The notes below the pieces were generated by a model. It had not been told where the DNA came from, did not search any database, and worked only from the letters and a program-made list of their open reading frames with translations. This document shows positions 17,117-55,013 of a stretch of DNA of 59,881 nt, one piece after another. The first letter of the stretch is position 1, and every line of letters starts with the position of its first letter. Source of the stretch: a virus; IMG/VR virus record IMGVR_UViG_3300043958_000214. The stretch is one strand, 5' to 3'. The translations under genes were made by a program, and so were the position numbers.

Positions 17117-17129
17117 GGGCCTCTCCGTG

Positions 17130-18111: not shown

Positions 18112-19485
18112 TCAGATGCCGAGAGCCTCCATCGACCGCCTGTTGCGCACCGAAGCGATGGCTGTCGCCGAGCTCCACAGGCTCTCAGCTGCCCGCGGGT
18201 TGCGGATCAGCACGGCAACGATCGCTTCCCTGTCGGCATCAGCGTGGATCTCGTAGGGAGCGAAGAGGGCTCGGGTCGCGGACCCACGATCCCCGTCCTC
18301 CCACTGTTGGGCGAGAACGGCGGGCCCACCCGCCTCCGCGACCTCCTTGCGCAGCTTCGTGGCCTCACCCGAGGAGATGGAGGCACGCGCGGCCAGTGGG
18401 GCGTCGGACTGTTCGGCGAGCGCGTTCCACGCGATCATGTTCGCCATCCTCTTCGCCACGGTTGGCTTCTCCGCCTCCGGGGACGTGAGCCGGTAGACCG
18501 CCTGGCTCCACTTATCGGTTTCCTCCCCGGAATGGGTCGTGGAGTAGTCGAGGAAGTTGGGGCGGGGCCGGGCCGGATCACCCGGGCGCCAGTGTGAGAT
18601 CACGCGGGAGGCGACATGACGGCGTTCCGCGTCGGTGAGGTCGCGTCCCAGCTTCGCGCTGGCCTGGTCGACGATTGTGGCGTAGACCTCCGCCGCCCGG
18701 CGTTCGGCCATGATGCGGCTTCTGCGGTGCGTCTCCACGTGAAGCAGGCGCCCGCTGCCGTTACTCGTGCCATCAAGGCCGATCGCGCCGACAAGACCAA
18801 GCTGGTCTGCTGCGCCGATATCCTCGTGGAACCGCCCATCCACGGACTTATGGAAATTCACGGAGGGTTTCCGCTTCTGGCGGTCCCACGTCTGCCTGAT
18901 CTCGCTGGCGAGCGCGTCGCGTTCGCGGTTCGTGATCTTGCGTCCGTGCTCCTGTTCGAACGCTGTCACTTGGTCGGCGAGCATCCGTCCGGCGATCTGA
19001 TCCGCGGAGGACTCCCGGCTTCCACGCAGGCGTTCCGCGATGCAGCGTTTGACGACTCCCCCGACGAAGTCGCCGGAACTGCGGATGGGCGACCTGTCAC
19101 CGGTCGACTTCTTCGCGCGCTGGTAGAGGCGCTGCATGACGTCCTGCGTGATGTCGTCTTCGAGACCTTCGAGGTGAAGCTCGGCGCCGCCTCCCCGGGA
19201 GAGGTATCCGCCGTCCTCAGCGAAGACGCCGCGGTGGCGGAGCATCCTGCGGGCAGTCTCCTTGGCGTAGAGGCGGACGGCTTCGGAGTCATGCTCGGAG
19301 TTCAGGTCGATCTCGTCCCAGGGCGGGAGCTTCCACATCGTGCCGGTCAGGACGTATCCGTCATCGTCTTCGGGGAGAGCATCGAGATCGACGCCTTCCG
19401 CTTCCGCGTAGTCCTTCGTGCTGTACTGCCCGACGTTGGCCGGGTTTTCCCCGCGCACGTGCTTGGTTTCGTCGTAGCCGCTCAT
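18112..19485 (-). CDS. Leader-tagged sigma-70-like protein (regions 2 and 3, no obvious region 4)
   Basis: Leader MSGYDETKHVRGENPANVGQYSTKDYAEAEGVDL; EDDITQDVMQRLY..FVGGVVKRCIAERLR resembles region 2; FEQEHGRKITNRE and SAKLGRDLTDAE resemble region 3 LGRxPTxxE. Confidence 0.55.
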   Translation of the reverse strand: MSGYDETKHVRGENPANVGQYSTKDYAEAEGVDLDALPEDDDGYVLTGTMWKLPPWDEIDLNSEHDSEAVRLYAKETARRMLRHRGVFAEDGGYLSRGGGAELHLEGLEDDITQDVMQRLYQRAKKSTGDRSPIRSSGDFVGGVVKRCIAERLRGSRESSADQIAGRMLADQVTAFEQEHGRKITNRERDALASEIRQTWDRQKRKPSVNFHKSVDGRFHEDIGAADQLGLVGAIGLDGTSNGSGRLLHVETHRRSRIMAERRAAEVYATIVDQASAKLGRDLTDAERRHVASRVISHWRPGDPARPRPNFLDYSTTHSGEETDKWSQAVYRLTSPEAEKPTVAKRMANMIAWNALAEQSDAPLAARASISSGEATKLRKEVAEAGGPAVLAQQWEDGDRGSATRALFAPYEIHADADREAIVAVLIRNPRAAESLWSSATAIASVRNRRSMEALGI

Positions 19486-20975: not shown

Positions 20976-22085
20976 TCAATGCGTCGACCGACGGCGTTTG
21001 GCCGGACGCTTCTTCCTTCCGGAGCCGGGAAGCGAGCCGCCTCTCACGTCAACGTTGCGGAATCCCCCGCCCTTGAGGAGTTCCATGACGCCACGATCCA
21101 CACGGCCAGCGGCCTTCTCGACCACCTCCGGGTCGTGGCTCGCCTGCGACCAGCCTTTGAGGTACTGGGCTGAGGCGCGTTTCCCCGCCTGATCATCGAA
21201 GCCGTTGGCCCGGTCGAGGACATAGCCAATGGACTCGGCCTCGACCTCCATGACGCCGCGGTGCTCCGCCTTCCGGTACTCCGCAAGATGCTCAGGGTCC
21301 AGGTGGCCGGCGACGATGTGGCCGAGCTCGTGGGACAGCGTGGCCGCGCGGTCCGGGATGCCCAACCGCGAGTCGATGACGATCGAGCCGAGACTAGGCG
21401 CGCCCGTCCCCCCTCCACCAGACGGTGGGCGGGTGAACCCGCGCGCCTCAGAATCGATCTCCTCATAGACGACGGGGAACCCGCGGCGCGCGGCTTCCAC
21501 CTCCAGGTCCTCGATGTAGCCGTCAGGGGGTGTGGCGCACAGGTGATCCCAGCCGCTCGGGATCGGGTCGCCTTCGGTCTGGGAGACGTCGAAGACGGAG
21601 GCGGTCGTGAAGCCGACGCACTTCCGTGTCTTCACGGGCTTTCCGTCCTCGTCGAGGACGGGCGCGCCTCCCTCATCCGTCTCATCGACCCGGACCGTTT
21701 TCGGAGCGAAGATCTGGATGCCCTTCTCCCCCGCTTTGACGTGGCGGCCGAGTTCGCTCCACGTGCGGAATCCGCCGACCATCCCGGTCCCGCCCTGTAG
21801 AGCGATCAGGAGACGGTTGTTGAAGGAATAGTGGTGGAACTTCGCCATGGCATCGAGGTAGGACTGCCACTCGGCATCCCCATCGAGGGCGTCGACGGCG
21901 TCGCGAAGCTCCCCGCGGAAGGCTTCGAGCTTCTCCTCCATCGTGTCGTAGCGGGTGTGGAAGACGTCCTTGGGGTCGAGGCAGACGCCGAGCGGATCGC
22001 AGTGGTTCTGGGAGGCGAACTGGCCGGCGTTCCCAGGCTGCCCGCGTTTTACTTTGGATTCGTCGAAGGTCGTTGCACTGCTCAT
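20976..22085 (-). CDS. ArdC-like ssDNA-binding domain + zincin metallopeptidase; divergent leader
   Basis: FHHYSFNNRLLI, GFRTWSELGRHVKAGEKG, VFDVSQTEG (ArdC-N); HELGH..EVEAES..YLKGW (MPTase); N-terminal FDESKVKRGQPGNAGQF. Confidence 0.88.
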   Translation of the reverse strand: MSSATTFDESKVKRGQPGNAGQFASQNHCDPLGVCLDPKDVFHTRYDTMEEKLEAFRGELRDAVDALDGDAEWQSYLDAMAKFHHYSFNNRLLIALQGGTGMVGGFRTWSELGRHVKAGEKGIQIFAPKTVRVDETDEGGAPVLDEDGKPVKTRKCVGFTTASVFDVSQTEGDPIPSGWDHLCATPPDGYIEDLEVEAARRGFPVVYEEIDSEARGFTRPPSGGGGTGAPSLGSIVIDSRLGIPDRAATLSHELGHIVAGHLDPEHLAEYRKAEHRGVMEVEAESIGYVLDRANGFDDQAGKRASAQYLKGWSQASHDPEVVEKAAGRVDRGVMELLKGGGFRNVDVRGGSLPGSGRKKRPAKRRRSTH

Positions 22086-23883: not shown

Positions 23884-25200
23884 TCACGCATGGACGGTGG
23901 CGAGTTCGGCCCAATGGGTGGTGGCCCGGTTGGAGAGCATGTCGCGGCGCATCTGCCAGTCAGGCGGATGTTTCAGGCCGGCGAGGCCAAGCCCGACAGC
24001 GTCACGCCCCAGCGCGGCGTTGACGCGGTCGATGAGGTCCCCGAGCCGGCTCCCGTGCTCGTCGGGCTGGAAGAGGGGCAGCATGGGCTCCGCACCCCGT
24101 TGGGCGAGATCGCTGACGCTGATGCCGGCTCGCACGTACCGGTTCCCGGGGATCATGCGCGGCAGGATCATGCGGGTGGCCGCCCTCATCACGGAGACCG
24201 GGTCATCGGTGCGCTCCGGGAGGGCGGCGGCCTCCCCGATCTGGTGAAATGCCTGAGAGCGGTCATGCCAACTGGTGGCGGCGAACGCGTACACGCTCCC
24301 CGCCACCGACCCCTGCTGGCGTAGGCGCCGTGTCACGTTCTGCGCGTAGATGCTGAGGACCTGGTGCATGGCCTCGGTGCCGGTCACCGGGGTGGAGAAG
24401 GACCGGGAGAACATGACTTGTCCGCGCCTTTGCGAGTCCCGTTCCTCGATCTCGATACAAGGCGTGCCCCGAAGCTCCAGGACCGTGCGCTCCACGTTGA
24501 CGGAGAACCTGCGGCGCATCGCCATCGCGTCGGCGTCACGCAACTGGCGGGCTGTCACGATCCCCAGGTCTTCAAGCCGGGCGCACAGGCGCCGTCCGAT
24601 CCCCCACAAGTCCCCCACCGGCGTCGCCGTGAGAATAGCGTCGAGGCGCTCAGGCCCATAGGCGTCCAGGCTCGCCACTCCCCCAAGGCCCCTCGAGCGC
24701 TTGGCCCCATGGCTGGCGAGCTTGGCGAGCGTGCGGGTCGGCGCGATACCCACGGAGACGGGGATGCCCAGGTCGTGGCGGACCCTCTCCCGGATCGCCC
24801 GCGCCTCGCCCACAAGGCCCTGCGGAGAGCCGTGCAGACGCAGGAACGCCTCATCAATGCTGTACACCTCCACGGCGGGAGTGAAACCGCCCAGGATCTC
24901 CATGATCCGCCGTGAGATAGACCCGTAAAGCTCGTAGTTGCTGGACCGGGCGACCACGCCCATCCTCTCGGCCTGCGCGCGGATCTTGAACCACGGCACG
25001 CCCATCTCGATGCCGAGAGCCTTCGCCTCGCGGCTCCTGGCGACCACGCACCCGTCGTTGTTCGACAAGACCACGATCGGGCGCCCTTCCAGCTCAGGAT
25101 GGAAGACGCGCTCGCAAGCGGCGAAACAAGAATCCACGTCGACGAGGGCGAACCGGCTCACCGGTGCAGGTGATGCAGGCACGTCGTCACCACCCCCCAC
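23884..25200 (-). CDS. umuC: Y-family DNA polymerase V catalytic subunit
   Basis: [53 protein letters not shown]; start may be slightly downstream. Confidence 0.93.
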
Positions 25201-29194: not shown

Positions 29195-30193
29195 TTACGC
29201 GGCTGTACCGTCGATGGGTCGGCGTTCGAGGGCCGCTCTGTTGGCTTCTCGGGTCTTGTTCCACTTGTCGACGTAGGCCTCCGCCTCCTGGTAGAGGTCG
29301 AGGTAGGACGCCCACTCGAGACCCGTGTGGCGTTTCAGTGCCGGGGAGCAGTGGATCTGCGTGTCGGGCGTCACCCTGTAGGCTCGGATCTCCCGATCGT
29401 CGATGTTGACGATGAGGCACGCCTGGGACGAGCCGTAGAAGTGCATGTAGTGACCGACCTGGAGGACGTAGCCCTCGGGGATGTGGTTCTCCGACCATTC
29501 GTCGGGGAAGCTCGAGGTCTTGCATTCGACGACAGACTTCAAGGTGCCGCGTTTGGAGAGGGTGAAGCCGTCGAGGTTCGCGTGCGATAGGCCGCGCCTA
29601 TACGTCGTCTTATCCATGTAGACGGGCACGCCGAGAATCTCGGAGGCCAGATTGTCCAGGGCAGGCTCCCACGTGTCTCCGCGCCCGGTGGCGCCGGAGT
29701 GCTCCTGCGTCTGGGGCGACAAGTCGAGTTTGGACTCCCGGACCTGCTTGAAGTTCCGTTCCCCCCAGTGCTCGTCGACGTGCATGATCGAACCGACGTC
29801 GGATCCCCCGAGCGTGTGCTGGCGGGTCCGCAACCACTGAGCCGACCCCGACGGGTAGTGCCCCATCTCCTCGGCGCCCTCCGGCGGGGTGAGCTTGTAC
29901 TCCGGCGGCTCCTGGCCGAGCCGGGAAGCGGCGATGAGGGCCGCGTGCTCGTCCTTCACGGCATTGATCCGAGCGTCGAGGGCCTTGCGCTCCGCCGCGA
30001 GATCGCGCCGATGGCGATACTCCTCGTCGGTGAGTCCCCTCCTCCCCCACAACTGGTCGAGTTCTCGGCGCATCGCATCGCGTTGAGACAGGAGGGCCCG
30101 GAACTCCGGCGTGGAGAACGGGGGAAGGCTGTGGGCGGTGAGCACGTCGTTGATGTCGGCGGCGTAGATGAGCTGGGGCAGGATCGGTTCCAT
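29195..30193 (-). CDS. YqaJ/lambda-exonuclease-like protein
   Basis: WLRTRQHTLGGSD, RGDTWEP, ANLDG, VECKT, YVLQVGHYM. Confidence 0.88.
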   Translation of the reverse strand: MEPILPQLIYAADINDVLTAHSLPPFSTPEFRALLSQRDAMRRELDQLWGRRGLTDEEYRHRRDLAAERKALDARINAVKDEHAALIAASRLGQEPPEYKLTPPEGAEEMGHYPSGSAQWLRTRQHTLGGSDVGSIMHVDEHWGERNFKQVRESKLDLSPQTQEHSGATGRGDTWEPALDNLASEILGVPVYMDKTTYRRGLSHANLDGFTLSKRGTLKSVVECKTSSFPDEWSENHIPEGYVLQVGHYMHFYGSSQACLIVNIDDREIRAYRVTPDTQIHCSPALKRHTGLEWASYLDLYQEAEAYVDKWNKTREANRAALERRPIDGTAA

Positions 30194-36205: not shown

Positions 36206-37177
36206 TCAGCTGGCTCGGGTCTCCAGCTCCCACTCGGCCGGCGGGTTTCCTCCGGCTGCGGCCCAGATGGCGGTGTCATCGTCTTCCTCGGTGGCCTCCG
36301 CCCACCGGTCGACGTGGGCACGGTTGGGGTCGAACCCCTGGATGTGCCCGGCGTAGCGCTGGAGGTACTCGGGCCGGTACTTCTTGGTCGAGGCTGACCC
36401 GTTCCCGTATGCCTGTCCCTCGTAGTACTCCTCGCCGCGCTGGACGACGAGGCGTTCAGGAATGAAGACTTCGGCGTTTCCTCTTCTCCCGCGGTCGAAA
36501 GCCGTGACGACGTAGGCGCTCTTCCCCGCCTGCCCCGCAGGGAGCGCTTCGCCGGGTTCGCCGGAAGACGGCTCGAGAGTCGGGAAGTCCAGGGGGTAGT
36601 TGGCGATGCGGTCGCGCAGTGCGTCTTGGTAGGCCGTGGCCTTGGCGTCGGTGATCCGCGTGTCCTTGGAGACGATGAGCACCCCGACCCCGTCGTTCAT
36701 GTCCTCGGCGTTGCCGAGCCAGGTGGATCCCAGCATCTCGTTGGAGATGTAGCGCAGGCGTTGCCCGTCGCGCCCCTCGATGGACTTCACGGGACCGCTG
36801 ACCAGTTCGAGGCTTCCCATGGGCGTCGAACGCACCGCCGTCAGCGTTTTGCCGTGTCGTTCGGCGGAATCGGCCAGCGCTTCCGCTTCGACGGGGTCGT
36901 GCAGGACCTGGCCGAGGAACTGACTCACCATGGTGTGCTGGGCTAGACGTGCGCCGAAGCGCGCATCCGTGGTGGGGCAGACCTGGCCGAGAATGAACGC
37001 CCCTGGACGCATATGAACCACATTCATGTCGAAGACGGAGTCAGCGGCGATTCCGCTGGTGCGCCGTGCGTCATCGAGTTCGACGTCTTCGGGCTCCGCG
37101 TAGTCCTTCGGACTGTACTGGCCGACGTTGTCGGGGTTCTTCCCCCGCGGGTGCTTGGCTTCGACGTATGTGCTCAT
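36206..37177 (-). CDS. Leader-tagged hypothetical protein
   Basis: MSTYVEAKHPRGKNPDNVGQYSPKDYAEPEDVEL; CCGCACAA-N8-ATG. Confidence 0.8.
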   Translation of the reverse strand: MSTYVEAKHPRGKNPDNVGQYSPKDYAEPEDVELDDARRTSGIAADSVFDMNVVHMRPGAFILGQVCPTTDARFGARLAQHTMVSQFLGQVLHDPVEAEALADSAERHGKTLTAVRSTPMGSLELVSGPVKSIEGRDGQRLRYISNEMLGSTWLGNAEDMNDGVGVLIVSKDTRITDAKATAYQDALRDRIANYPLDFPTLEPSSGEPGEALPAGQAGKSAYVVTAFDRGRRGNAEVFIPERLVVQRGEEYYEGQAYGNGSASTKKYRPEYLQRYAGHIQGFDPNRAHVDRWAEATEEDDDTAIWAAAGGNPPAEWELETRAS

Positions 37178-37626: not shown

Positions 37627-38466
37627 TCATGCACGGCGCAGGGAGGCGAGCGCGTCAAGGAGCGCAGGCCGCGCGGTCCTTCCGCCGAGCCTGGCGTCCA
37701 TGCGAGCGACGTAGTGATCGAAGACCGAGCGCGCTTCCTGCCTTCCCAGTTCGCGTCCGCTTTCCCGAATCGTCGCGGCAGCGGGTTCCCAGGTGTCGCC
37801 GGCGCGGGAGAAGACGACGGTGGCCTCGGTGGTGCGGGCGCCGAGCCGGTCGGTGAACGCGAAAACGGGCTCCCTCCCCACCCGGATGGCCCACACGTTG
37901 ACGATGTCGGTGGGTTCCGTGCCCTCGCGTACGCGGCCGTGGGCGATGGCATCGACGAGGTACCTGCACTGCGGGAGGTTCACCGTGTCGTCGAGTCGGC
38001 GCTGCAGGTCAGCCTTGTCGGGCAGCGTGCTTGCGGCTTGGCGTAGCCAGTCGGGGTCGAGTATGGGTCCTTCCGCCACATCGTCTCGGGTGCCTCCTCC
38101 GACGGGGATCGTGCGGACGGAGAACGGGAGAGGGTCGGCGGCGCCCCATGAGGCATAGACGTCGGCGAATTGGACTGCGCCTTCCGCGTCCGAGATGAGG
38201 AAAGCGTGGGCCTTCCAGTCACCGGTGTCGTGGATCAGCATGGTCTGCGTCCCCCCGCGGGGCATGTTCTCGATCCACGTATCGACGCCATCCCGGGGGA
38301 CCCCAAGCCCGTACGCGAAGGCTTCGAGGGAACCTTCAACGTCATCGTGAGAGGGGGCGAGCTCGATGTCGGGCTCGGCTCGCTGGCGCTTCGCGAACTC
38401 ACCGCCCGTGGGGAGGCCGCCAGGTTGACGGTTGACCTTGGATTCGTCGAAGGTGGATGTGTTCAT
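37627..38466 (-). CDS. Hypothetical protein with divergent leader
   Basis: MNTSTFDESKVNRQPGGLPTGGEFAKRQRAEPDIEL; CCGCACAA-N8-ATG with no SD. Confidence 0.75.
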   Translation of the reverse strand: MNTSTFDESKVNRQPGGLPTGGEFAKRQRAEPDIELAPSHDDVEGSLEAFAYGLGVPRDGVDTWIENMPRGGTQTMLIHDTGDWKAHAFLISDAEGAVQFADVYASWGAADPLPFSVRTIPVGGGTRDDVAEGPILDPDWLRQAASTLPDKADLQRRLDDTVNLPQCRYLVDAIAHGRVREGTEPTDIVNVWAIRVGREPVFAFTDRLGARTTEATVVFSRAGDTWEPAAATIRESGRELGRQEARSVFDHYVARMDARLGGRTARPALLDALASLRRA

Positions 38467-40486: not shown

Positions 40487-40986
40487 TTTTCCTTCTTTCA
40501 GGAGTGGACATCGCGAAAGTGATTCCAACGAATGAGAGCCATGAGACATTTCGGGTTGATTCTCCCCTATATAGGGGGAACTTCTGGGAGAGACCTCGAC
40601 CTAAGTATGGCTGGAATTTGGACGCGTATCATCTGGAGAATTGTGCAGATGTCACTCAAGCGCCTTTGCGGGCTTTTGGAGAAGCCCGAGGTCGACGATT
40701 TCAGCTATTTGTAATACAGTGAGCAATCGAAGGAATCGGATACGCTCGTCTGTCTCTATGGGGACGATCCCAATAGAGAGACGAATTCCTGATCTGGGCT
40801 GTTCGGTACCTTGTGCGGCGGGCAGCTCAATCTGTCCGGGTTACCCTAGACGGGAATGCTCGTTTTGGGGTTACAGCAAAAGGGCTGTAATGTTGACAAT
40901 TTGCAACACTTTTCATACAGCAGTCGAGCCCGCTGTACGGACACCCCCGTTATCGGAAGAGGCTGTATCCCGGGCGTTGTAGGCGT

Positions 40987-41883
40987 TCACTGGAGGTAGG
41001 TCCTGCCATCGTCGCCCCTGAGGGCGGAGAGCTCCCCCACGGACTGGGCAGCCTGAGTGAGTCGTTCGCCGTCCTCGCCCCACCCGCGGTCCCAGAATCC
41101 CGTCCCGTGATTGTTGCGGGTCAGCCACAGGTCGCGCCCCCACTGCTCGGGTCCGATACCGAGGCGCTGAAGGATGTGGCCGGCCAGGTCGTAGAACGCC
41201 TGCGCGTCGTCGGCGAGGCGCGCTCGGGCTTGGTCTGAGAGGTCCTCCGTCGTCCAAGGCGTGTCCTCCTGGTCGCCGTCGGTGAACTCTGCCGCCTGTG
41301 CCGCGGAGGCGGCAGCCTGATCGCATTGGCCATCGCCGGCGGCAAGGCTTAGGGCGAGTTCGCGTCGATTGGCGTCAGTCATCGGGGCTTCCCGGCGGCG
41401 CTGTTCGTCCAGGATGTCGTCGAGGGAACGCCCGGCTGGATAGACGATCCTCTGGGAGTAGGCACCGGTTCCAAGGACCGGGTCCGCCTCGAGACCGTGC
41501 TCGTCGAGGAAGCGCTCCACCTGGAGCCGGTGCGCCGACAGGTAGGCCCCAGGGTCCTTGCCCGCCGCGATCTGAGCGGGGTCGCATTCGAACGTGGATG
41601 TGACGGTCGTCGTCCCATCGGCGTTGCGCTGGGCGTAGACGAGAGCGGCCTCACCGAGGTCCGCCTCGTCGTCGCCCAGTTCGAGGACCCCTCCGTACTC
41701 GATGAGCCTGGCCTCGGATTCGCCGCTCCCCCACTGCCTGAGATTCTGCTGGTGGATCGCGGCGGACGCGAACGCGGCATTGAGCTCTATGTCCTCTGCT
41801 TCCGCGTGGTCCTTCGCGCTGTATTGGCCGACGTTAGAGGGGTTGGCGCCCCGCCGGTGCTTGGCTTCGTCATAAGTGCTCAT
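40987..41883 (-). CDS. Leader-tagged hypothetical protein (array unit 7)
   Basis: MSTYDEAKHRRGANPSNVGQYSAKDHAEAEDIEL; C-terminal GRDLWLTRNNHGTGFWDR motif; CCGCAAAA-N8-ATG. Confidence 0.8.
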   Translation of the reverse strand: MSTYDEAKHRRGANPSNVGQYSAKDHAEAEDIELNAAFASAAIHQQNLRQWGSGESEARLIEYGGVLELGDDEADLGEAALVYAQRNADGTTTVTSTFECDPAQIAAGKDPGAYLSAHRLQVERFLDEHGLEADPVLGTGAYSQRIVYPAGRSLDDILDEQRRREAPMTDANRRELALSLAAGDGQCDQAAASAAQAAEFTDGDQEDTPWTTEDLSDQARARLADDAQAFYDLAGHILQRLGIGPEQWGRDLWLTRNNHGTGFWDRGWGEDGERLTQAAQSVGELSALRGDDGRTYLQ

Positions 41884-41950
41884 GACTCTCCTTTTGCGGC
41901 GGTCGCCAAGGTTCGCCTGTCCACGCCGGCGGCGCGCCTAGTCAGGCTTT

Positions 41951-43036
41951 CTATCGAGCGTCCCCCTCGCGCGTCTGCGAGCGCGGGTAGGCGAGGGTCT
42001 GGGCGTAGTGGTGGAACAACCCGCCGTTGTCGTAGCGGGCCCGGTATTTGCCTGTTGCGGGGTCGTGGACGATCCATTCGCTTGCGAGGGCATCGACGTC
42101 GGTGGTGTCGTCGACGTGCTTGAGCTTGCGGATGACTTCGGCGTCCATGGCGGCGGAGCGGCCTTTGTAGTGCTTGACGGGGGGTCCTGATGGCGTGAAG
42201 CGGAAGATGAGGGCGTCGTCGGTGTCGACAAGCCGGTAGTTGCCGTGTCCGTCGGAGTCCTGCCCGTAGAGGAGGCGGATTTCGTCTGCGTTAGTGGTGG
42301 ACATGGTGTCGTCGAGGTCATCGTCGAGGCGGTTCCCGTCCTCGTCGATGGGTGCGATCGCGGTGACGTATTGGGCGTTGGATTCCTCGCCGTCACACTC
42401 GAGGGTGAGTTGAAGGGCGGTGGCTGCGGGGTAGTTGGCTTTGACCCTGTCGATGAGTGCTTGGTCGAGGGCGCGGTCGTTGTCTTCTTGGCGATCCTCG
42501 AAGGACAGCCTGGTGCGGTCGACGGTGTCGCGTGCCTGGTTAAGGTTTTGCGTGGTGGGTGGGGTCGGGTGTCGGCGGATGATCTCGTCAATGTCGGCCC
42601 GGATTGTCCCCGTGTTCTCCCCGGTCGAATGCTGGCGGCCTTGGTGGGCTGCTCTGAACCGGTCGGCATCTGGGACGAGGTTGGACGTGAGGGATTCGGG
42701 GAGGTCGACGTCTGCTAGGTCGATTCCGCTGCCCCCTTCGGCCGACGGCAGGTCGTAGTAGTTCCCGTTGTCGTAGTGGTCAAGGTGATAGACGAGTTCC
42801 TTGGCCTTGGGGTCGATCGCCCGGGCGGCGTGCGCCCATCCTGCTTCTTGTAGGTCGCAAAGCGTCCGAATGGCGGATTCGTAGTAGCGGCGCGTCGAGT
42901 CCAGGACCTCCTGGCGCAGGCTGGTGGCGACATCGAGCTCCACTCCCTCGGGCTCCGCGTGGTCCTTCGCGCTGTACTGGCCGACGTTGGCTGGGTTCTT
43001 CCCGCGTGGGTGCAAGGTCTCGTCATAAGTGCTCAT
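41951..43036 (-). CDS. Leader-tagged hypothetical protein (array unit 6)
   Basis: MSTYDETLHPRGKNPANVGQYSAKDHAEPEGVEL; CCGCACAA-N8-ATG. Confidence 0.8.
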   Translation of the reverse strand: MSTYDETLHPRGKNPANVGQYSAKDHAEPEGVELDVATSLRQEVLDSTRRYYESAIRTLCDLQEAGWAHAARAIDPKAKELVYHLDHYDNGNYYDLPSAEGGSGIDLADVDLPESLTSNLVPDADRFRAAHQGRQHSTGENTGTIRADIDEIIRRHPTPPTTQNLNQARDTVDRTRLSFEDRQEDNDRALDQALIDRVKANYPAATALQLTLECDGEESNAQYVTAIAPIDEDGNRLDDDLDDTMSTTNADEIRLLYGQDSDGHGNYRLVDTDDALIFRFTPSGPPVKHYKGRSAAMDAEVIRKLKHVDDTTDVDALASEWIVHDPATGKYRARYDNGGLFHHYAQTLAYPRSQTREGDAR

Positions 43037-43059
43037 GACTCTCCTTGTGCGGCGTGTAC

Positions 43060-43863
43060 TCATCTGAAGATGATCTCGTTGCGCGTTCCGGCGACCTCCA
43101 GTTCGCGGACGGCGACGAAGCGGTCCATTCCGGTGTCGTCGGTGATGCGCAAGTGCGCACTTCGGAAGTCGCCCGGGGTGATGGAGCGTCCGTCCTCGTT
43201 CCAGAATCCTGTGCGGATCGTCCCTGAGACTTCTCGGGTATCCCCGAACTCGTCGTGGCGGAGGTACTTCACATGCGACTGGGCGCCCATGGCGTCAATG
43301 ATCCGGGCGTCCATCCTGATCTGAGCCATCTGCTGGGCCACGGGCACAGGCTTGTCCTCCGGCTCAGACGACGCAGCGGGTTCTGGGGCGTCACCGAGAA
43401 CGGATCCGACGATAGCCTTCTGAACGTCAGGGGTGATGGCCGCGATCTGGACGGCGTACGCCTGTTCGTCGATTCCCCGCGCGACCGCCCCCATCCACTC
43501 CATGGCATCATCCCCCACGTCAGGGTCCGCGGTGGAGAAGTCCGGCTCCGGATAGAAGTACACGTCATTGCTGGGGTCAACCCAGCTGCTGATCATCTGT
43601 CCGTCCGGCATGACGAACTGCGTCTTGACACCGTCATCGAAATCGATGAAAACCCGGGGCCGTTCCCCGGCCGACTCCGGCCAGTCTGGGAGGTCGAGGT
43701 CGTCGTGGCGCAACCGAACCGTCGAGCGGATCGGAACCTCGACGGCTCCTGCGCTGCGAGGCAACTCCACCCCCTCCGCGTCGGCGTGGTCCTTCGCGCT
43801 GTACTGCCCGACATTGGCGGGGTTCTTCCCGCGTGGGTGCAAGGTCTCGTCGTAAGTACTCAT
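43060..43863 (-). CDS. Leader-tagged hypothetical protein (array unit 5)
   Basis: MSTYDETLHPRGKNPANVGQYSAKDHADAEGVEL; CCGCACAA-N8-ATG. Confidence 0.8.
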   Translation of the reverse strand: MSTYDETLHPRGKNPANVGQYSAKDHADAEGVELPRSAGAVEVPIRSTVRLRHDDLDLPDWPESAGERPRVFIDFDDGVKTQFVMPDGQMISSWVDPSNDVYFYPEPDFSTADPDVGDDAMEWMGAVARGIDEQAYAVQIAAITPDVQKAIVGSVLGDAPEPAASSEPEDKPVPVAQQMAQIRMDARIIDAMGAQSHVKYLRHDEFGDTREVSGTIRTGFWNEDGRSITPGDFRSAHLRITDDTGMDRFVAVRELEVAGTRNEIIFR

Positions 43864-44328
43864 ACCCCGTCTTGTGCGGCGCAGATCGATTCGAGAGACT
43901 CAATCGCCTCGCACGGCAGCAACCCTAGAGAGGAAGTCGTCCCTGGCATCCTCGTCGAACCACCGGACGTTCGCCTCCATGTCCTCTAGCCGATCCGCGA
44001 AGTACGTCAACTCCCGTCGGACCAGCTCCGCGTCAGGACGTTCAGAGGCGGCGCTGAGAAGGATGTTGCTCGAGAGCCCATCGAACGCATCGAGTCCAGA
44101 CCCCCCGAGCAATTCTGCCGCGTCGTGGGCGGCCTGCAGTCGTTCGACCATCGCGCGACGATCCTCAGCAGTCATCACCTCACGTTCGCGGGTACCCGGC
44201 CCGATGCCAAGCTCCACCCCCTCCGCGTCGGCGTGGTCCTTCGCGCTGTACTGCCCGACATTGGCGGGGTTCTTCCCGCGTGGGTGCAAGGTCTCGTCGT
44301 AAGTACTCATACCCCGTCTTGTGCGGCG
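43765..44328. repeat. 117-nt perfect direct repeat (43765-43881 and 44212-44328) covering box + leader
   Basis: Base-by-base identity from CTCCACCCCC to TTGTGCGGCG; sequences diverge immediately outside. Confidence 0.9.
43900..44310 (-). CDS. Leader-tagged hypothetical protein (array unit 4)
   Basis: Same leader as unit 5, unrelated short helical body. Confidence 0.8.
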   Translation of the reverse strand: MSTYDETLHPRGKNPANVGQYSAKDHADAEGVELGIGPGTREREVMTAEDRRAMVERLQAAHDAAELLGGSGLDAFDGLSSNILLSAASERPDAELVRRELTYFADRLEDMEANVRWFDEDARDDFLSRVAAVRGD

Positions 44329-44348
44329 GCGGGACACCCAGACATCTC

Positions 44349-45359
44349 TCACCCGGCGCGGCGGCTCAAACCGCTCCGCCGCCCTTCCGCAACCCACATC
44401 GGCGTGTTGTACGCGGAATGGACGAGCCCCGCGGTCTGATCCCACCCGTACCCGTCCTCCTCATCGTCAAGACGGACGCGACGCGCATCGGGGAGTTCCT
44501 CATCCCCCGACCTCGCCCCCACGGACATGCTCGCCCACCCAGACATCACCACGTCGTAGCCTGAGCCGTTCAACGTGTCGATCAGGACGACATGAGGGTT
44601 CTCGAAGCTCAGGACCCGCTCCACGTCACCGGGAATGGCGTCCCGCACATCCCCATTCCAGATGACGTCCAACCGGACTCCTTCATGCCAAGTCTCAGGG
44701 CCCTCAGACACGAGATCTCGCACAGCCTCAGCATTGCCCTCATCCAGCATGTCGATACCCGCTGCGGACAGTTTCTGCCTCAACAGCTTCTCCCGGTTGC
44801 GCACCAAACGGCCCCACGCCTTCTCGTCGCCCGGGTTCGCCCAATACGTCTCGGCCCCGGCAAGCGTGCCATACCCCGAAATCGGAGCCCGCATCAACCT
44901 TGGTCCCACGTTCCGCAAGAGATCACGCTCACGGTCGGAATCATCGTGATCCCAGATATAGTCCCTCAGGCGCTCGCGGTCCTCGTCGGCGTCATCGAGG
45001 GCGGTGAAGTCGGTTCCGTGCTCGTCGTCGAAGCGGGCGATCGCCTGGTCGATGTCGTCCGCGTCTGCCTCGAGATAGCGGTTGCCGAGCTCTTCCATGT
45101 ATGTAACTTCGTCGCCGGAGAAGGCGAGGCGGAGGAGGTCGTCCGGCATCTCCTCATCAGGTCCCGTGTACGCCAGGTAGAACCTCTCGCCCGACGGTTC
45201 AAGCCCGTCCAGAGCCTTGACGCGCAGATCATGTCTCGACTCCCCTGACCCGACATCAAGTTCGACGCCTTCGGGCTCCGCATGGTCTTTGGGACTGTAC
45301 TGCCCGACGTTGTCGGGGTTCTTCCCGCGTGGGTGCAAGGTCTCGTCGTAAGTGCTCAT
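44349..45359 (-). CDS. Leader-tagged hypothetical acidic protein (array unit 3)
   Basis: MSTYDETLHPRGKNPDNVGQYSPKDHAEPEGVEL; CCGCACAA-N8-ATG. Confidence 0.8.
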   Translation of the reverse strand: MSTYDETLHPRGKNPDNVGQYSPKDHAEPEGVELDVGSGESRHDLRVKALDGLEPSGERFYLAYTGPDEEMPDDLLRLAFSGDEVTYMEELGNRYLEADADDIDQAIARFDDEHGTDFTALDDADEDRERLRDYIWDHDDSDRERDLLRNVGPRLMRAPISGYGTLAGAETYWANPGDEKAWGRLVRNREKLLRQKLSAAGIDMLDEGNAEAVRDLVSEGPETWHEGVRLDVIWNGDVRDAIPGDVERVLSFENPHVVLIDTLNGSGYDVVMSGWASMSVGARSGDEELPDARRVRLDDEEDGYGWDQTAGLVHSAYNTPMWVAEGRRSGLSRRAG

Positions 45360-45409
45360 ACCCCGTCTTGTGCGGGGATGGACGCCGGAAGGCCCGTGAG
45401 AGACCAGTC

Positions 45410-45844
45410 TCAGCCGCCGTAGACCGCGACGTTGTAGTCGGACAATGCGTCCTTGAACTCACTTGAGCCGGTGTCGTAGCGCGTCGCGGCCACTGCGTCG
45501 CCTTTGATCAGGTCGGCGTTGGAGTAGACGCGACCGCAGTCGGGGCACACCGCGTACTCTTCTTCGTCGCCCGATCCGAGGGAGTCAGGGTTCAACCGCC
45601 CGTTCCGGTCTGCTGCCACCCAATCGTCGGTCTCGGAGTCGTTCCCGCACTCGCAGATCTGGTTTTCCCCGCCATCGATCACGCGAGCGATGCCGTCAAC
45701 GGGCTCTGGGGAGAAGGGGTAAGCGCCCTTGATCGGGGTGCCCAACTCGACGCCTTCAGGCTCCGCATGGTCTTTGGTGCTGTACTGGCCGATGTTCTCG
45801 GGGTTTCCGCCGCGCTGATGTTTCGTCTCGTCGTAGATGCTCAT
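45410..45844 (-). CDS. Leader-tagged small Zn-finger protein (array unit 2)
   Basis: MSIYDETKHQRGGNPENIGQYSTKDHAEPEGVEL; CECGN..CPDCG. Confidence 0.8.
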   Translation of the reverse strand: MSIYDETKHQRGGNPENIGQYSTKDHAEPEGVELGTPIKGAYPFSPEPVDGIARVIDGGENQICECGNDSETDDWVAADRNGRLNPDSLGSGDEEEYAVCPDCGRVYSNADLIKGDAVAATRYDTGSSEFKDALSDYNVAVYGG

Positions 45845-45888
45845 ACTTCCCCTTGTGCGGCGGGCACGGGCTGTCCGGTGTCCGCCGT

Positions 45889-46725
45889 CTAGAACGATCG
45901 CGCGACCTGGCACAGCCGCTTAGCCTCAGCGTCGGTAATCACCGAGTACTCGGAGAACCCGTTGTAGCCGCTCTTTCGGCACCGGTACAGCGCGAGTCCC
46001 CAGTCCGAAGCCGACAGCGGTAGGCGGTCGAGGACCTCTCCAGCACGCTCGTAGAACTTCGCGGAAAGCCGGGTTGCGTGGGCCATCGCGGCGTCTGTGG
46101 GTGTTTCGCACCCTGCGCGTTCGGCTTCCGCGACCGCGTACATGGTCCCCGCCTCGACGTTTGCATCGTCGACGCTCTCACAGCGGAATGCGAGGCGTTC
46201 ACCCAGCGATGCCGCCGGCTTCGACATCTCATCATTGAGGGGCCGGACACGGTTCTCGAGCATCCAGTCGAGGTCCTTGTCCAGGCTCATCCCCGTCGGG
46301 AAGACCGTGGTGTGGGCGTATGCCTCGAACCCTTCTTGAGGGGCCTTCTCGAGCCCGTAGAGGGATTGAAGAAGCCGACTGATGGTGTTGCGATGCGCCG
46401 CCACATAGGCCGCACCACGGCCCTTGTCCGTCAAACCCGCACGCTCCACGGCGGTGGGGGCACCCACGTCATACACGACAGTGACGGTCGTAGCGCCGTC
46501 ATTCGCCCGCTCGGCGTGAAGACCCTTGACGAAGGTCAAGTCGTCCCACCTGAGCAGGCCGGCCGTGAGATCCAAGCTCCCGCCGCGCTCGATCAGCGCA
46601 CCCTCAAGAGAGGACGGGGTCGCGAGCTCCAGGTCGCGGTCGTCTGCGTACCCCTTTCGGCTGTACTGGCCGATGTTGTCGGGGTTCCCGCCACGCTGAT
46701 GCTTCGACTCGTCGTAGATGCTCAC
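45889..46725 (-). CDS. Leader-tagged hypothetical protein (array unit 1), paralog of 40987..41883
   Basis: MSIYDESKHQRGGNPDNIGQYSRKGYADDRDLEL; CCGCACAA-N8-GTG. Confidence 0.8.
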   Translation of the reverse strand: MSIYDESKHQRGGNPDNIGQYSRKGYADDRDLELATPSSLEGALIERGGSLDLTAGLLRWDDLTFVKGLHAERANDGATTVTVVYDVGAPTAVERAGLTDKGRGAAYVAAHRNTISRLLQSLYGLEKAPQEGFEAYAHTTVFPTGMSLDKDLDWMLENRVRPLNDEMSKPAASLGERLAFRCESVDDANVEAGTMYAVAEAERAGCETPTDAAMAHATRLSAKFYERAGEVLDRLPLSASDWGLALYRCRKSGYNGFSEYSVITDAEAKRLCQVARSF

Positions 46726-47286
46726 ACCTCTCCTTGTGCGGCGGGCACAGGGTGCTGGGTGAATGTCGTCTAGAACGATCGCACGACCGCGCGTCTTCGG
46801 TGGCGGGTCTGGACATTCCGAGGTTCACGTCCTAGCCACGAGGCGCGTCGCTCACTAACGCCATTATGCGGGATAGGCCACGACCTGTGGCACTTTCAAC
46901 GTTCTGGCCGGACACCGAGAGCTTCAAAACCGCACCGGTTTCAGCCTACAGAAGGCCCTGAAGACCGCGCACCCCCCCCCCCAATGGCATCACCCTGCGG
47001 ATGCCGGGTTAAACACGCGCCGACCCCACCGAAATCCTCCATACCTCACCAGCCTCATGACAGCCCACATACCTGACTGCAGACCGAACTAACTTGAAAC
47101 AAGCCGGGTGTAACCCTCGAACCGTTACTTCCTCAGGCAAGCGAAGAAGGGTGGGGGCCTCGAATCTCTTCCCGGCTGGTGGAGATCGCCAAGACCAGGG
47201 TCTCGTGCTAAAGGTTCCCGATTCAAGAGGGGCATTAGTCTAGATCCTCAATATAATTGATTCATATTAGCGCCATTCGTCGATTC

Positions 47287-48264
47287 TCATATGAGAGCGA
47301 GTAGGTCTGACCGGATGTGGAACATGGGCTCATCCCAGTCGAAGCCAAGAATTCTTAGCTGTTCGTCGAGAAGGGCTGCCATCTTCAACCGAGCCTCTTG
47401 CTCCGACTCTCGCGAAAGAGCGTATTCACCAGAGGGCAACGAATTTAGTAATGTGCGAAATTCGCTAAGCCATGCTGAAAGATTCTCCCTGGTGTTCATA
47501 TAGCGGAGGCCCCTCGTATCTAGCGGTAATTCAGCACTGGCAACTGTTTCGTACGCAACGCAGTATGCCATCTGTTTGAGTGCGATCAATACTTGGGAGC
47601 CGACCTCGAATACCAGCCTATTCACGTCTCTATGCACTTGGTAACTGGTTACAACTTTGATCAGAGCATCTTCGAGCCAAGCCACAATCTCACTTGGATT
47701 CCAGTTAGACTCATCGGTAGATAACCTGCGTAACGAGCCAAGCTCGGCTCTGTACTCATCAATAATCGCTGCGGCGGCGGATGTCAGGTTCAGCGTTTTC
47801 CAGCTGTCATTCTCGTTAGACCGGGATGACTCGCCACGTTGGTATATCGAGACGTGGTTCATCTCATGTACTAGCGTTCTTAAGAATAAGAACGCGGCAT
47901 CAGGGTTCGTCTCGTAATCGAGAGCTTTCTCGAAGATATCCGCACGAAGGAGGACGGAAGAGCCATCGCCGTCATGAATAGTCTTGCCGGCCACGAGACC
48001 TTCTCCTCGAAGAAGGTTGAACGAGCGTGCCGCCTCGGTGTCGCGCAGACGATCTTTGGTGGATTTCACAAAGTCACCTGTGATCACTAACGTGACGTTC
48101 TGGGGAGACTTCGCAATCGCTGTGGCTAACTTAATGCAGACCAGGAGAAATTCCGGCAACGGGGAAGAGGTAACGAGCTCAACAAGTGTTTCACTGACCG
48201 ATTCGAACTGAACTTGTGCGGTAGGCAGATCGTCTTCGACCATGATTTTCCCTTCGTCGTCCAC
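47287..48264 (-). CDS. Hypothetical protein with HExxH zincin-like motif, low-GC cargo
   Basis: TLVHEMNH..IIDEYRAE; visibly AT-richer than the backbone. Confidence 0.65.
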   Translation of the reverse strand: MDDEGKIMVEDDLPTAQVQFESVSETLVELVTSSPLPEFLLVCIKLATAIAKSPQNVTLVITGDFVKSTKDRLRDTEAARSFNLLRGEGLVAGKTIHDGDGSSVLLRADIFEKALDYETNPDAAFLFLRTLVHEMNHVSIYQRGESSRSNENDSWKTLNLTSAAAAIIDEYRAELGSLRRLSTDESNWNPSEIVAWLEDALIKVVTSYQVHRDVNRLVFEVGSQVLIALKQMAYCVAYETVASAELPLDTRGLRYMNTRENLSAWLSEFRTLLNSLPSGEYALSRESEQEARLKMAALLDEQLRILGFDWDEPMFHIRSDLLALI

Positions 48265-48800: not shown

Positions 48801-51387
<2,587 letters not shown>

Positions 51388-51395
<8 letters not shown>

Positions 51396-53055
51396 CGGTG
51401 TCGTCGGCTTCGATCTCGTCGAACAAGGTGCTGTCGTGTGGGGCGACTTGGGACTCGATGAACGCGATCTCATCATCGGTCAGCCCGTAGCGCTCGTAAA
51501 GCATCTGGTCAGTCCAGTTCTGGTTGAACGGAACCTCCGGAATAAACGAGTACACATGTCGAGGTGCGTCTTGAGTCGACTTACGGAGCGATACCAAGAA
51601 CCTGACGAATCGGGTGCCCAGATAGCTGGCGTAGGACTCAGCCTCTGTTTCACTTTCAAACCGACCCGCAACGAGGTAGGTCTCGGTGCAGGCTGTCCCG
51701 GGCCCCACGATGATGGGCTTAGAGAGGAACTTGGTCTCCACAGCGGCACTGGTTCCCTGGACACGTGTCATCAGGACCTTCCAGTCGTCGATCCACTCGG
51801 AGTGCAGCGGAATCTCTGAACGTTCGATCCAGCCCACTCGCTGGTTCGCGTAGAGCTTCACCGGGTCCTTCAACCCGCGGGTCGTGTCTTTTCCTTGGAC
51901 GAACGTCCGAAGTCCAAACGGCTTCTGTGTAGACACTCTGTTGTCGAGGGTCTGCTCATGCCGCATGCGTACCTTTTCAAGGATCGGAACGGCTTCATTG
52001 CGCCGAACGAGGACGTCGTAGGCGTCGAGATAGCGGGCGACGGATTCGCCGACGGGCTGACCGTCCCACATGGTTTGGATAGTGCAAGGGCCGTCGTAGT
52101 CGCGGTCCCACAGGAAGTAGGAGACGCCGCCGCGGATCTTCACCCCAGGGAAGGCCTCGTAGAGCTTGGGATAGTCGACGATGTCGTGCATCCGATGGTC
52201 GGCAAGCATGGTCTTGCGGTACTCGTCCAGTCCCTTGCCTCCCGCCATCCAGCGCGAGGGGGTGACGAACACGGCGAAACGCGGATCAAGGCCGAGGGCC
52301 TTCTCAACGAAGTGCTGATAGATCGGAGCAGCTGAAGCTCCATGCCCGCCGTCGGAGAGCTGGTAGGGCGGGTTGCCGATGATGACGTCGAACTGCATGG
52401 TGTCTCCGAACAGCTCGCGGATGCGAGCTTTGATGTCGTCGGTGTGGATGAAGGCGTAGGCGTGGGTTTCCAGTTCGTCACCGCGCCCGTAGTCGTCCTC
52501 ACCCGCACCGCAATAATTGCACTTGCGGTGGGTGTAGACGACCTTCTCGTCACTGGTCAGTGGGTCGACGCGGTATTCGCGCGTGCCGCCGGTCCAGGTG
52601 TGTTCGGTGCGCTGGAACCAGATGTTCCCGTCCTCGTTGTCGAAGGACTTGGCGATCGAGTGGGGTCCGTTGGCGTACTTGGAGCAGTACACGGACCGGC
52701 GGGCCAGCAGTGCGGTGAGCTGGGTGATGCCGATGCCGTAAACCTGCCGGGTGAGGATGTGGTCCACTCGCTCCTGAAGGTCAGGGAACTGGCTGGTGAG
52801 TCCGTCGACCAATCGTCGGGTGATCTCTCGCAGGAACACTCCGGACTTGGTGAACGGGTCAAGGAAGGTGACGTTCGGGTCGGCCCAGATGTCGGCGCCG
52901 TCGTGGGAGTCAGCCCAGCGCTGGGCCAGTAGGTCGAGCATGGCGCCCGCCATCTCGGGCGGGGTGAAGACCTCGTCGTTCGAGAGGTTTGCGATGCAGG
53001 TCAGGACGTCGGGGTTGTGCCTGCGCAGCGTGAAGGGAGCCTGGGTGATGCTCAT
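51388..53055 (-). CDS. Eco57I-family adenine methyltransferase with C-terminal target-recognition region
   Basis: DEVFTP, degenerate motif I DPFTKSGVF, FDVIIGNPPY, TPSRW. Confidence 0.88.
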
Positions 53056-53705
53056 GCGGCGTCCGCCTGCTCTGCCAGATCGTTGACGGTCATCGTCGGG
53101 TACGTCGTTTCAGGCGTGAACAGGTCCGCGCCCATGTCGGCGAACAGCGACCCTTCGGCCTCCCAGGCGGAACGCTTGGTTAGCTCGTCGTAGCGAAAAT
53201 CACGGCGCTGGAACCTCCCCTTGCCCAGGTATCCCCATTCGGCGAACGTGATCGGCTCTCCGATGGGCGTGGTCATCGTGAGGGCATCGCCCTGGACGAT
53301 GTTTACCGAGAGGACGGCGCGGGAGGCGCGGGCCCACTCGTCGTCCTCCTCGATTCCGAGGAAGGCGTTGAGGAGGGTGGCGAGGTTGTCACGGCACTCC
53401 GCAGCATTGTCTGGCAGTAGCTCGATCCCGTAGGTGCACATCAACGCGAACAGGGCGTAGTGGCGCTTCTCGAAGTCACTCTTGCCGTGCTTGGCAGCCA
53501 CCGTCAAGAGTTTGCGAGTCAGAACAGCGACGAGGAAGTTCCCCGACCCACAGGCGGGTTCCAAGACTCTGGAGTCGATTCGCTCGGACTCTTCCTTCAC
53601 CAGGTTGAGCATGTCCTCGACCATCCAGGACGGGGTGAAGACCTCGCCGTGGTCTGCCACGCGCTGCTTGGACTTCACTAAACGCTCAATCCCGTTCGCG
53701 TTCAT
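53052..53705 (-). CDS. Short methyltransferase subunit (SAM-binding half only)
   Basis: HGEVFTP, LEPACGSGNFL, YGIEL, NIVQGDAL; no NPPY. Confidence 0.85.
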   Translation of the reverse strand: MNANGIERLVKSKQRVADHGEVFTPSWMVEDMLNLVKEESERIDSRVLEPACGSGNFLVAVLTRKLLTVAAKHGKSDFEKRHYALFALMCTYGIELLPDNAAECRDNLATLLNAFLGIEEDDEWARASRAVLSVNIVQGDALTMTTPIGEPITFAEWGYLGKGRFQRRDFRYDELTKRSAWEAEGSLFADMGADLFTPETTYPTMTVNDLAEQADAA

Positions 53706-54027: not shown

Positions 54028-54306
54028 TCACGCGGCGTCGAGCGCAGCGTGTAGCGCCTCCATGTTCTGGAAGTCCAGAGTGGTATCCCCGCACCGTAAG
54101 CGGAGTGCCCCGCCGCCTTTCGGCGCCGGGCCGTGGTCGGGCTGTTCGATGACGCGGTCCACGCACTCGACGGGGACTCCCGCGTCCTCGATGCCGAGGA
54201 GGCGGCGAGCTGCAGCTTGGGATGCGGCGTCAAGGGGGTGGCCGAGAGTGAACAGCTGTCCCCCGCCGGGTTCTGGCACGAGGACCTTTCCGATGTTCGG
54301 GTTCAT
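54028..54306 (-). CDS. Small hypothetical protein
   Basis: CCACAAC-N6-ATG; ATGA overlap with the upstream gene. Confidence 0.55.
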   Translation of the reverse strand: MNPNIGKVLVPEPGGGQLFTLGHPLDAASQAAARRLLGIEDAGVPVECVDRVIEQPDHGPAPKGGGALRLRCGDTTLDFQNMEALHAALDAA

Positions 54307-55013
54307 GCCTGTGTTGTGGGACACGAACGAAGCTCACGCGTCGGATGTGCGGGCTCGAGGAGTGTGATGGAGTCGGAGGGCTTGCTCCATCCTCCAAAGG
54401 TCTCCCACGCCCGGGTGTCGTCTTCATCCCCCCTGGTCTCCCAGTCGTCCTGGGTCCGGTCCCAGGCGCTGGCAAGACGGTTCAAAACGATCCGCGGGTC
54501 TCCTGAGACGTGGATCGCGTCGGTTGCTTCGTTCTCGCCTTTGCCCTGCTCGGCGACGGTGATGTCGGTGGATCCGGTAGTCTTGTCGAAGACGATGGAA
54601 ACCCGGAGGTCATGTGTGACGTTGTCGATCTGAGCGGCGGGCACGCTCTTGTCGTTGGCGACTAGTGTCGCGTCGCACAGGCCCTGCCCGACGGCGTGGA
54701 AGTCCGCCGGTGTCCCAGGGAAGGGGACTCGCCCGGTAGAGGAATGAACGCGCCCGTCGGGCGTGCGCACGCTGGTGACCAAGGTGGCGTCCCCTGGCGC
54801 GTCGAAGCAGACGTCGAGATTCCGCTCATTGCCGGTTGCGCGGATCGACACGCAGGTATTGTGCCCGTCGTCGGTGACCATGAGGTGGGAGGAATCCACA
54901 GGGGCCGCGCCGAGTTCGACCTCCTCCGGCTCAGCATGGTCTTTCGGGCTGTACTGGCCGGTGTTCGCGAGGTTCTTTCCCCGCGGGTGCTTGGCCTCGT
55001 CGTAGACGTTCAT
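54303..55013 (-). CDS. Leader-tagged hypothetical protein
   Basis: MNVYDEAKHPRGKNLANTGQYSPKDHAEPEEVEL; CCGCACAA-N8-ATG with no SD. Confidence 0.8.
   Translation of the reverse strand: MNVYDEAKHPRGKNLANTGQYSPKDHAEPEEVELGAAPVDSSHLMVTDDGHNTCVSIRATGNERNLDVCFDAPGDATLVTSVRTPDGRVHSSTGRVPFPGTPADFHAVGQGLCDATLVANDKSVPAAQIDNVTHDLRVSIVFDKTTGSTDITVAEQGKGENEATDAIHVSGDPRIVLNRLASAWDRTQDDWETRGDEDDTRAWETFGGWSKPSDSITLLEPAHPTRELRSCPTTQA

Follow-up and report, generated by a model that had tools for sequence, protein, structure and literature searches.

In T4-type phages, PeSL (promoter-early stem-loop) cassettes consist of a conserved expression module that is repeated before unrelated, co-oriented accessory genes (Arbiol et al. 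2010, PMC2839356; Comeau et al. 2014, PMC4122927). Recombination between PeSL copies gives rise to insertions, deletions and replacements among relatives, and close direct repeats could release mini-circles (PMC2839356, PMC4122927). Here, we describe a tandem array of seven minus-strand genes at positions 40987–46725 of the IMG/VR virus record IMGVR_UViG_3300043958_000214 (59,881 nucleotides [nt]; this whole stretch is referred to below as the window), which all open with a common short DNA box and a common N-terminal leader peptide. By analogy, PeSL-mediated modular shuffling in T4-type phages appears to be the closest known mechanism, since the array likewise shows a repeated module directly upstream of unrelated accessory genes, here as a 117-nt unit that occurs seven times and always places the box 8 nt before the start codon.

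Analyses of boxes, open reading frames (ORFs) and repeats bore out the original prediction of seven consecutive minus-strand genes, each with its own box and leader. The ORFs lie head to tail, from U1 at the 46725 end down to U7. Specifically, they comprise U1 (45889–46725; GTG start; leader plus a body of 244 amino acids [aa]; a paralogue of U7), U2 (45410–45844; leader plus a 110-aa, zinc-ribbon-like body with two CxxC pairs), U3 (44349–45359; leader plus a 302-aa body that has orthologues elsewhere with another leader class), U4 (43900–44310; leader plus a 102-aa body), U5 (43060–43863; leader plus a 233-aa body of two domains), U6 (41951–43036; leader plus a 327-aa body) and U7 (40987–41883; leader plus a 264-aa body, the C-terminal ~50 aa of which correspond to phrog_1915). 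The gaps between consecutive units (44, 50, 38, 36, 23 and 67 nt) are as short as had been proposed, and the bodies behind the leader, expected to span about 100 to 330 aa and to be mostly different, range from 102 to 327 aa, with U1 and U7 as the sole related pair in an all-against-all BLASTP comparison of the seven bodies (33% identity over 245 aa; E-value, 2e-18).

The octamer CCGCA(C/A)AA ends exactly 8 nt ahead of the start codon in all seven units, as the variant CCGCACAA in six of them and as CCGCAAAA in U7. The window contains 16 copies of this octamer versus 2.8 expected, a number reached in 0 of 100 shuffles, and 15 of the 16 copies lie on the minus strand. The leader is the same 34-residue peptide, encoded by the first 34 codons of each unit, with the core HPRG...NP...GQYS. 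A repeat search revealed one family, whose seven 117-nt copies on the minus strand (41785–41901, 42938–43054, 43765–43881 [U5], 44212–44328 [U4], 45261–45377, 45746–45862 and 46627–46743) each consist of box, spacer and 34 codons. The arrangement is far beyond chance.

This head differs from a PeSL in its makeup and its setting. PeSLs are purely intergenic and combine a sigma-70 promoter with a terminator hairpin, whereas the array head has neither hairpin nor sigma-70 promoter (no sigma-70-like promoter or terminator was found between the array units) and runs 34 codons into the gene, so that a protein tag travels along with it. In addition, the array sits on an actinobacterial plasmid-like element. 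Module end points of the PeSL type are matched at the protein level by leader swaps between related leader proteins and at the DNA level only by plasmids of Curtobacterium, both of which are presented below. An RNA-level role of the head was ruled out, given that a consensus structure is absent (−3.2 kcal/mol, without covariation) and that Rfam gave no match.

Other known systems share single traits with the array. The internal proteins of phage T4 carry a capsid-targeting sequence, a short N-terminal peptide common to unrelated small proteins encoded at a variable locus; the peptide is removed by the prohead protease, and the proteins are packaged in the capsid. The array proteins too have a short shared N-terminal peptide on otherwise unrelated bodies, but their tag is three times longer, and no virion genes, including those for a capsid or prohead protease, were found in the window. 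A co-oriented row of unrelated small genes with the look of exchangeable units also recalls an integron cassette array. This candidate was ruled out, as the array has no integrase, attI or attC and each unit has its own putative expression signal and start codon; any exchange in the array would instead proceed by homology. The description of the array as integrase-free thus held: no integrase family was found on the seven ORFs, the three other ORFs with a canonical leader or the flanking genes, a search that took in only this part of the 192-kb element, and the 23- to 67-nt gaps between units contain no attC-like inverted repeats. Orphan cassettes of CDI (contact-dependent inhibition) and Rhs loci are C-terminal toxin pieces without a start of their own, each paired with an immunity gene. 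A polymorphic toxin array of this type was likewise rejected, since every unit here has its own start and head and the gaps hold no small partner genes.

Anti-defence islands in the leading regions of plasmids are clusters of co-oriented small genes, most of them without known function, near ArdC- and UmuC-type genes of conjugative elements, in which phage-related families are common (Samuel et al. 2024, PMC11541004). Such islands are expected beside the origin of transfer (oriT), on the strand that is transferred first. The likeness to these islands is one of layout only, in that the seven co-oriented array genes lie on the same strand as an ArdC-like gene (20976–22085) and a UmuC-like gene (23884–25200). 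However, oriT and a relaxase were not found here, none of the seven genes belongs to a known anti-defence family, and such islands have not been described as sharing a tag or a box. Finally, polyvalent proteins of phages and conjugative elements are giant multidomain proteins thought to enter the recipient together with the DNA (Iyer et al. 2017, PMC5512222). A short motif similar to the leader recurs inside giant multidomain proteins recovered with the leader profile, but in the array every module belongs to a gene of its own, with its own start, rather than forming a domain of one polypeptide.

The original prediction was confined to the seven genes, and our analysis refines it by showing that the module extends to five more genes in the window and to at least six elsewhere on the element. 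The same box and leader head three further genes of the window (54303–55013, 36206–37177 and 18112–19485), and a divergent head ("class B") precedes the gene at 37627–38466 and the ArdC-like gene. Outside the window, at least six more proteins of the 192,334-nt contig bear the module. Another copy of the box lies just downstream of 18112–19485, in the loop of a long G+C-rich hairpin (18050–18110), and looks terminator-like rather than like a gene head. Our preferred reading, held with moderate confidence, is that tagged accessory genes, of which the element as a whole has at least 16, are packed most densely at this locus, and that the locus represents a slowly turning cassette array, in which the head acts as an occasional seam for exchange.

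The array heads carry footprints of recombination. The heads of U4 and U5 are identical over 117 nt (100%) between random flanks on both sides, and identity falls from 100% to random in a single step after codon 34. In the leaders of this pair, 32 of 33 synonymous codons are identical versus 17 expected. Compared with U6, the U4/U5 sequence has 23 of 31 synonymous codons identical versus 16 expected (P ~0.005), with exact runs of 32 nt; such excess synonymous identity is confined to U4, U5 and U6. U3 shares with U4/U5 a 40-nt exact run that includes the non-coding spacer, while the 3′ half of its head resembles U2, and the longest exact runs within U3–U6 are accordingly 117, 40 and 32 nt. A mosaic signal in single leader triplets is suggestive, and we place no weight on the mosaic test.

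Further traces lie at both ends of the array on the minus strand. About 60 nt upstream of the box are common to U1 and U2, which means that the last codons of U1, its stop and its junction recur ahead of U1 itself. In this relic (46742–46800), which precedes the U1 box, the end of a U1-type gene is preserved, with its last ~6 codons, its stop and the adjoining intergenic junction. At the other end, an orphan U1-type junction with a box (40809–40850) is a 42-nt copy of the U1–U2 junction; it starts ~140 nt past the U7 stop codon, with its box ~170 nt past, and is followed by neither a start codon nor a leader. This brings the 16-nt extended box that U1 and U2 share to 3 copies versus 0.02 expected. 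A search of the array flanks for relic cassettes at the protein level found none, the junction relics being present at the DNA level only. The end relics are the remains of past duplications or deletions with end points at the head.

Relatives at the protein level show discordance between leader and body. U3 and its orthologues P0002–P0004, located on contigs of 97 kb (P0002), 118 kb (P0004) and 7 kb, are 65 to 71% identical in the body and 33 to 38% identical in the leader (Fisher P, 3.5e-5 to 2.5e-3), and the leaders of all three orthologues belong to class B. More pronounced still is the case of P0079, a leader protein that this element encodes beyond the window, and P0080, its orthologue from the 118-kb contig: their bodies are 89% identical, their leaders 28% (P = 4e-17). 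Likewise, U2 and P0016 from a near-identical relative are 97% identical in the body (3 of 110 residues differ) and 82% identical in the leader (6 of 34 differ), and the P0016 leader is closest to that of P0079. The normal pattern, in which the leader is at least as conserved as the body, was seen for U5 and P0007, for the product of 18112–19485 and P0012 as well as P0064, and for U1 and U7. U5 also differs in domain content from P0030 and P0078 (97- and 118-kb contigs): these two consist of the leader and the C-terminal domain only, whereas in U5 a further domain of ~135 aa separates the C-terminal domain from the tag. Heads and bodies have therefore been recombined with one another, and the seam lies where the tag ends. 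The contigs that encode the related proteins measure 97,225 nt (P0002 and P0030), 118,594 nt (P0004, P0078 and P0080), 141,671 nt (P0019 and P0024), 62,663 nt (P0012), 1,981 nt (P0007) and 1,124 nt (P0016 and P0071). Since the U3 body bears a class-B leader in three metagenomic relatives and, as described next, in three Curtobacterium plasmids, class B is ancestral for this body and the neighbour-like class-A head of U3 derived.

A tblastn search with the ArdC-like protein led to three megaplasmids of cultured Curtobacterium (Curtobacterium sp. MCBD17_040 and MCSS17_016 and C. pusillum AA3), D40, pS16 and pCPAA3 (NZ_CP126274.1, NZ_CP126255.1 and CP018784.1), which show the same geometry of box, spacer and start together with the same leader family. 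These plasmids carry long co-oriented rows of hypothetical genes beside an ArdC-like gene and a giant FtsK/SpoIIIE gene, and in many genes of the rows a CCGC(G)CA(C/T)A box lies about 8 nt ahead of the start and a leader belonging to this family follows. Against a broad leader profile, the top-scoring of these leaders match with E-values of 1e-8 and 2e-6; the canonical profile misses the Curtobacterium leaders genome-wide, and the broader one catches only the best of them.

Comparison among the plasmids revealed several differences that take the form of cassettes, including gains and losses of whole units between boxes. The slot behind ArdC holds three, one or no genes, and another slot is empty in one plasmid, occupied by a leader gene in the second and by a non-leader gene in the third. 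In two plasmids that are ~88% identical, one leader gene remains alike across box and leader and then shows an indel of ~230 to 270 nt from the last leader codon onwards. Several cassettes are 48 to 60% identical inside a backbone of ~85 to 93% identity. Homologues of the U3 body occur in all three plasmids (E-values, 2e-29 to 2.5e-20) at the end of another row, each with a class-B leader, and in one plasmid the U3 homologue is immediately preceded by an additional cassette, inserted box to box and bearing the same leader, which is the pattern of U4 and U5.

With regard to the plasmid records themselves, NZ_CP126274.1 and NZ_CP126255.1 (546 to 608 kb) are typed in PLSDB as "non-mobilizable". 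Yet both encode an FtsK/SpoIIIE protein of 1,700 aa and contain a type IV coupling-protein-like gene as well as ArdC-like genes and long rows of box and leader genes, and PLSDB typing therefore probably misses an actinobacterial transfer system. The unannotated pCPAA3 shows many broken frames in genes that are intact in the ~88% identical relative; as these are probably sequencing errors, its ORF calls are unreliable.

Several findings weigh against the head as a seam, and they are given here together. For most other leader pairs, the number of identical synonymous codons equals the codon-bias expectation and the longest exact runs are 8 to 27 nt, which indicates that most leaders are old and kept at the peptide level and that most pairs would make poor homology arms. 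The global maximum chi-square mosaic test on the modules is marginal, with 19 of 300 codon-block permutations reaching the observed value. The GC content of the bodies (0.64 to 0.69) is backbone-like, so that no body looks newly imported. Each of the seven array proteins is letter-for-letter identical on 6 to 7 contigs, and the near relative's U1 and U2 fragments were each located on a single contig of 1,124 nt. This is probably one and the same contig, a sign that the U1–U2 adjacency is kept there. As far as the sequences tell, the array looks stable in the samples at hand, with no indication that the number or order of its cassettes varies. In the Curtobacterium plasmids, gene order is largely conserved even though proteins are only 40 to 77% identical. 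Moreover, the indels seen in these plasmids are evidence by analogy from a distant lineage, and indels that respect gene borders could also be produced by selection alone, without any mechanistic part for the module. The proposal that the constant 5′ module serves as a homology arm consequently fared unevenly: past exchange at the head is supported by the 117 nt shared by U4 and U5, the relics, the leader swaps and the Curtobacterium indels, whereas the short exact runs and the codon identity at expectation speak against it for most pairs.

These observations bear differently on the alternatives. One is a dedicated, fast-turning system, in which the head would be maintained as a homology arm, RecE-like and RuvC-like machinery would routinely excise, capture and reorder the bodies, and the arrays of relatives would differ. 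The identical heads of U4 and U5, 447 nt apart, would then release a predicted 447-nt circle, as the repeats of T4-type PeSLs do. The relic junctions and the Curtobacterium slots with zero, one or three genes fit this alternative as well. The YqaJ-like and RuvC-like genes invoked in the original prediction are indeed present, both on the minus strand, as a RecE/YqaJ-like exonuclease gene with a possible recombination function (29195–30193) and a gene for a RuvC-like Holliday-junction resolvase (9829–10431). However, the synonymous sites of most leaders are not homogenised, exact runs are short, the proteins are identical across contigs, order is mostly kept between diverged plasmids, and no single-strand annealing protein was found in the window, all of which makes routine turnover unlikely.

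The opposite alternative is a static operon of co-regulated tagged proteins, in which the head would be purely functional, the identity of U4 and U5 a single accident, and rearrangement would play no role. Codon identity at expectation for most pairs, the marginal mosaic test, the lack of a compositional sign of import and the conserved order in cultured relatives all speak for it. Nonetheless, such an operon does not account for swaps of leader class on bodies that are 89% and ~70% identical, for three copies of the U1-type junction, or for relatives with an indel from the last leader codon and with box-to-box cassette indels, and we therefore give it a rather low probability. Least probable by far is a row of seven tandem paralogues with bodies diverged past recognition behind a conserved N-terminus, as this holds for the true paralogues U1 and U7 but conflicts with the lack of detectable similarity among the other bodies, their lengths of 102 to 327 aa, their separate homologues (a Gordonia phage protein for U3, phrog_1915 for U7 and a CxxC family for U2) and the one-step loss of identity between U4 and U5 after codon 34.

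The slowly turning cassette array that we prefer could work as follows. Each gene comprises a box, 8 nt, a start codon, a 34-residue tag predicted to be disordered and an unrelated, very acidic body. The head would be primarily functional, with the box as a putative private expression signal and the tag, retained chiefly by selection on the peptide, as a possible signal for the handling or delivery of proteins with a role upon entry of the DNA into a new cell. As every gene is preceded by the head of ~118 nt, this head may secondarily serve, now and then, as a seam for homologous recombination. At this seam, neighbouring heads would convert one another (U3–U6), tag classes would be exchanged on a given body, domains would come and go immediately after the tag, and complete units, from one box to the next, would be inserted or deleted. 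The element's RecE-like and RuvC-like genes could assist such exchange. The expected outcome would be slow cassette turnover with the overall order kept and few hot slots, and not fast shuffling of the integron kind.

Among 5.8 billion protein clusters, the leader profile identified 16 clusters with a canonical leader, all of them on the 192,334-nt contig or its near-identical relative. Among 1.84 billion representatives it matched 63 proteins only, most of which are small and carry the motif at the N-terminus, with a few giant proteins that contain internal copies. A leader-profile search for related loci returned only internal motifs of large proteins, on six metagenome contigs and one metagenome-assembled genome of Chloroflexia. 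No match was obtained for the second leader lineage in viral contigs, for the U3 family in genome, viral and metagenome contigs, or for the array (blastn) and U5 and U3 (tblastn) against plasmids and phages, and a word-based protein search with U7 found only U7 itself.

The bodies themselves have few recognisable relatives. Searches of U1–U7 against Pfam, PHROGs and NCBIfam yielded only phrog_1915 in the tail of U7 and a weak CxxC family match for U2, and no recognised anti-defence family. The last ~50 residues of U7 (40990–41140) correspond to phrog_1915, which is present in 439 phage records, among them those of Mycobacterium, Escherichia, Gordonia and Caulobacter phages; its annotation is always hypothetical, and in Caulobacter phages the motif lies inside terminal repeats. 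The U3 body matches an uncharacterised Gordonia phage protein (E-value, 1.6e-10). The structure model of U3 has a predicted local distance difference test score (pLDDT) of 65, with the leader predicted to be disordered (residues 1–38 below a pLDDT of 50), and gave no match against the PDB. For U5 and U6, the ESM Atlas provided weak structural leads only, to small viral proteins, and the U7/U1 model (pLDDT, 42) was too poor for a structure search. All seven array proteins are highly acidic, with 15 to 22% aspartate plus glutamate (18 to 22% in U2–U7) versus 7 to 15% in backbone genes, and with net charges of −10 to −38. High acidity is common to many DNA-mimic anti-restriction proteins and is the one feature of the seven that favours an anti-defence role. 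The bodies, none of which matches a family of known function, are putative effectors.

The gene content of the window fits a large conjugative-plasmid-like element of an actinobacterium, ~192 kb in size. Besides the genes mentioned above, the window encodes a DNA polymerase III alpha subunit, DnaK, a UmuC-type polymerase, NrdD/NrdG, an NlpC/P60+SLT wall hydrolase and type I-E Cas proteins. The wall hydrolase gene (11576–12817) adjoins a gene for a 1,149-aa protein (13757–17206) that has no match in Pfam or PHROGs and may belong to a transfer apparatus. Beside the array, a T5orf172+ResIII helicase-like gene (891 aa), an Eco57I-type methylase gene (555 aa) and a short N6-methylase fragment (217 aa) follow one another at 48801–53705 and make up what resembles a restriction or defence module. 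Immediately upstream of the array, the gene at 47287–48264 has a GC content of 0.51 and a GC content at third codon positions of 0.57, versus 0.64 to 0.69 and about 0.8 in its neighbours, and its sole match is a PHROG family without assigned function (E-value, 5e-5); by appearance, foreign DNA was recently inserted here, separating the array from the helicase/methylase block.

A bolder and doubtful extension of our reading is that the array belongs to an undescribed "tagged cargo" system of actinobacterial conjugative megaplasmids, in which a regulon with a private box, a tag that marks proteins for delivery or action together with the transferred DNA, and a head used as a docking seam would allow genes to be captured, lost and re-tagged by homologous recombination alone. 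If true, this would be an integrase-free functional analogue of the integron for anti-host proteins. As the architecture is present in three cultured, fully sequenced Curtobacterium plasmids, the putative roles of box and tag and the turnover can be tested at the bench and are not restricted to metagenomes. If the head is both tag and seam, this would account for the way in which large plasmids of actinobacteria build up and refresh their own set of proteins for establishment in new hosts, and box plus tag would provide a simple rule to spot such proteins among hypotheticals.

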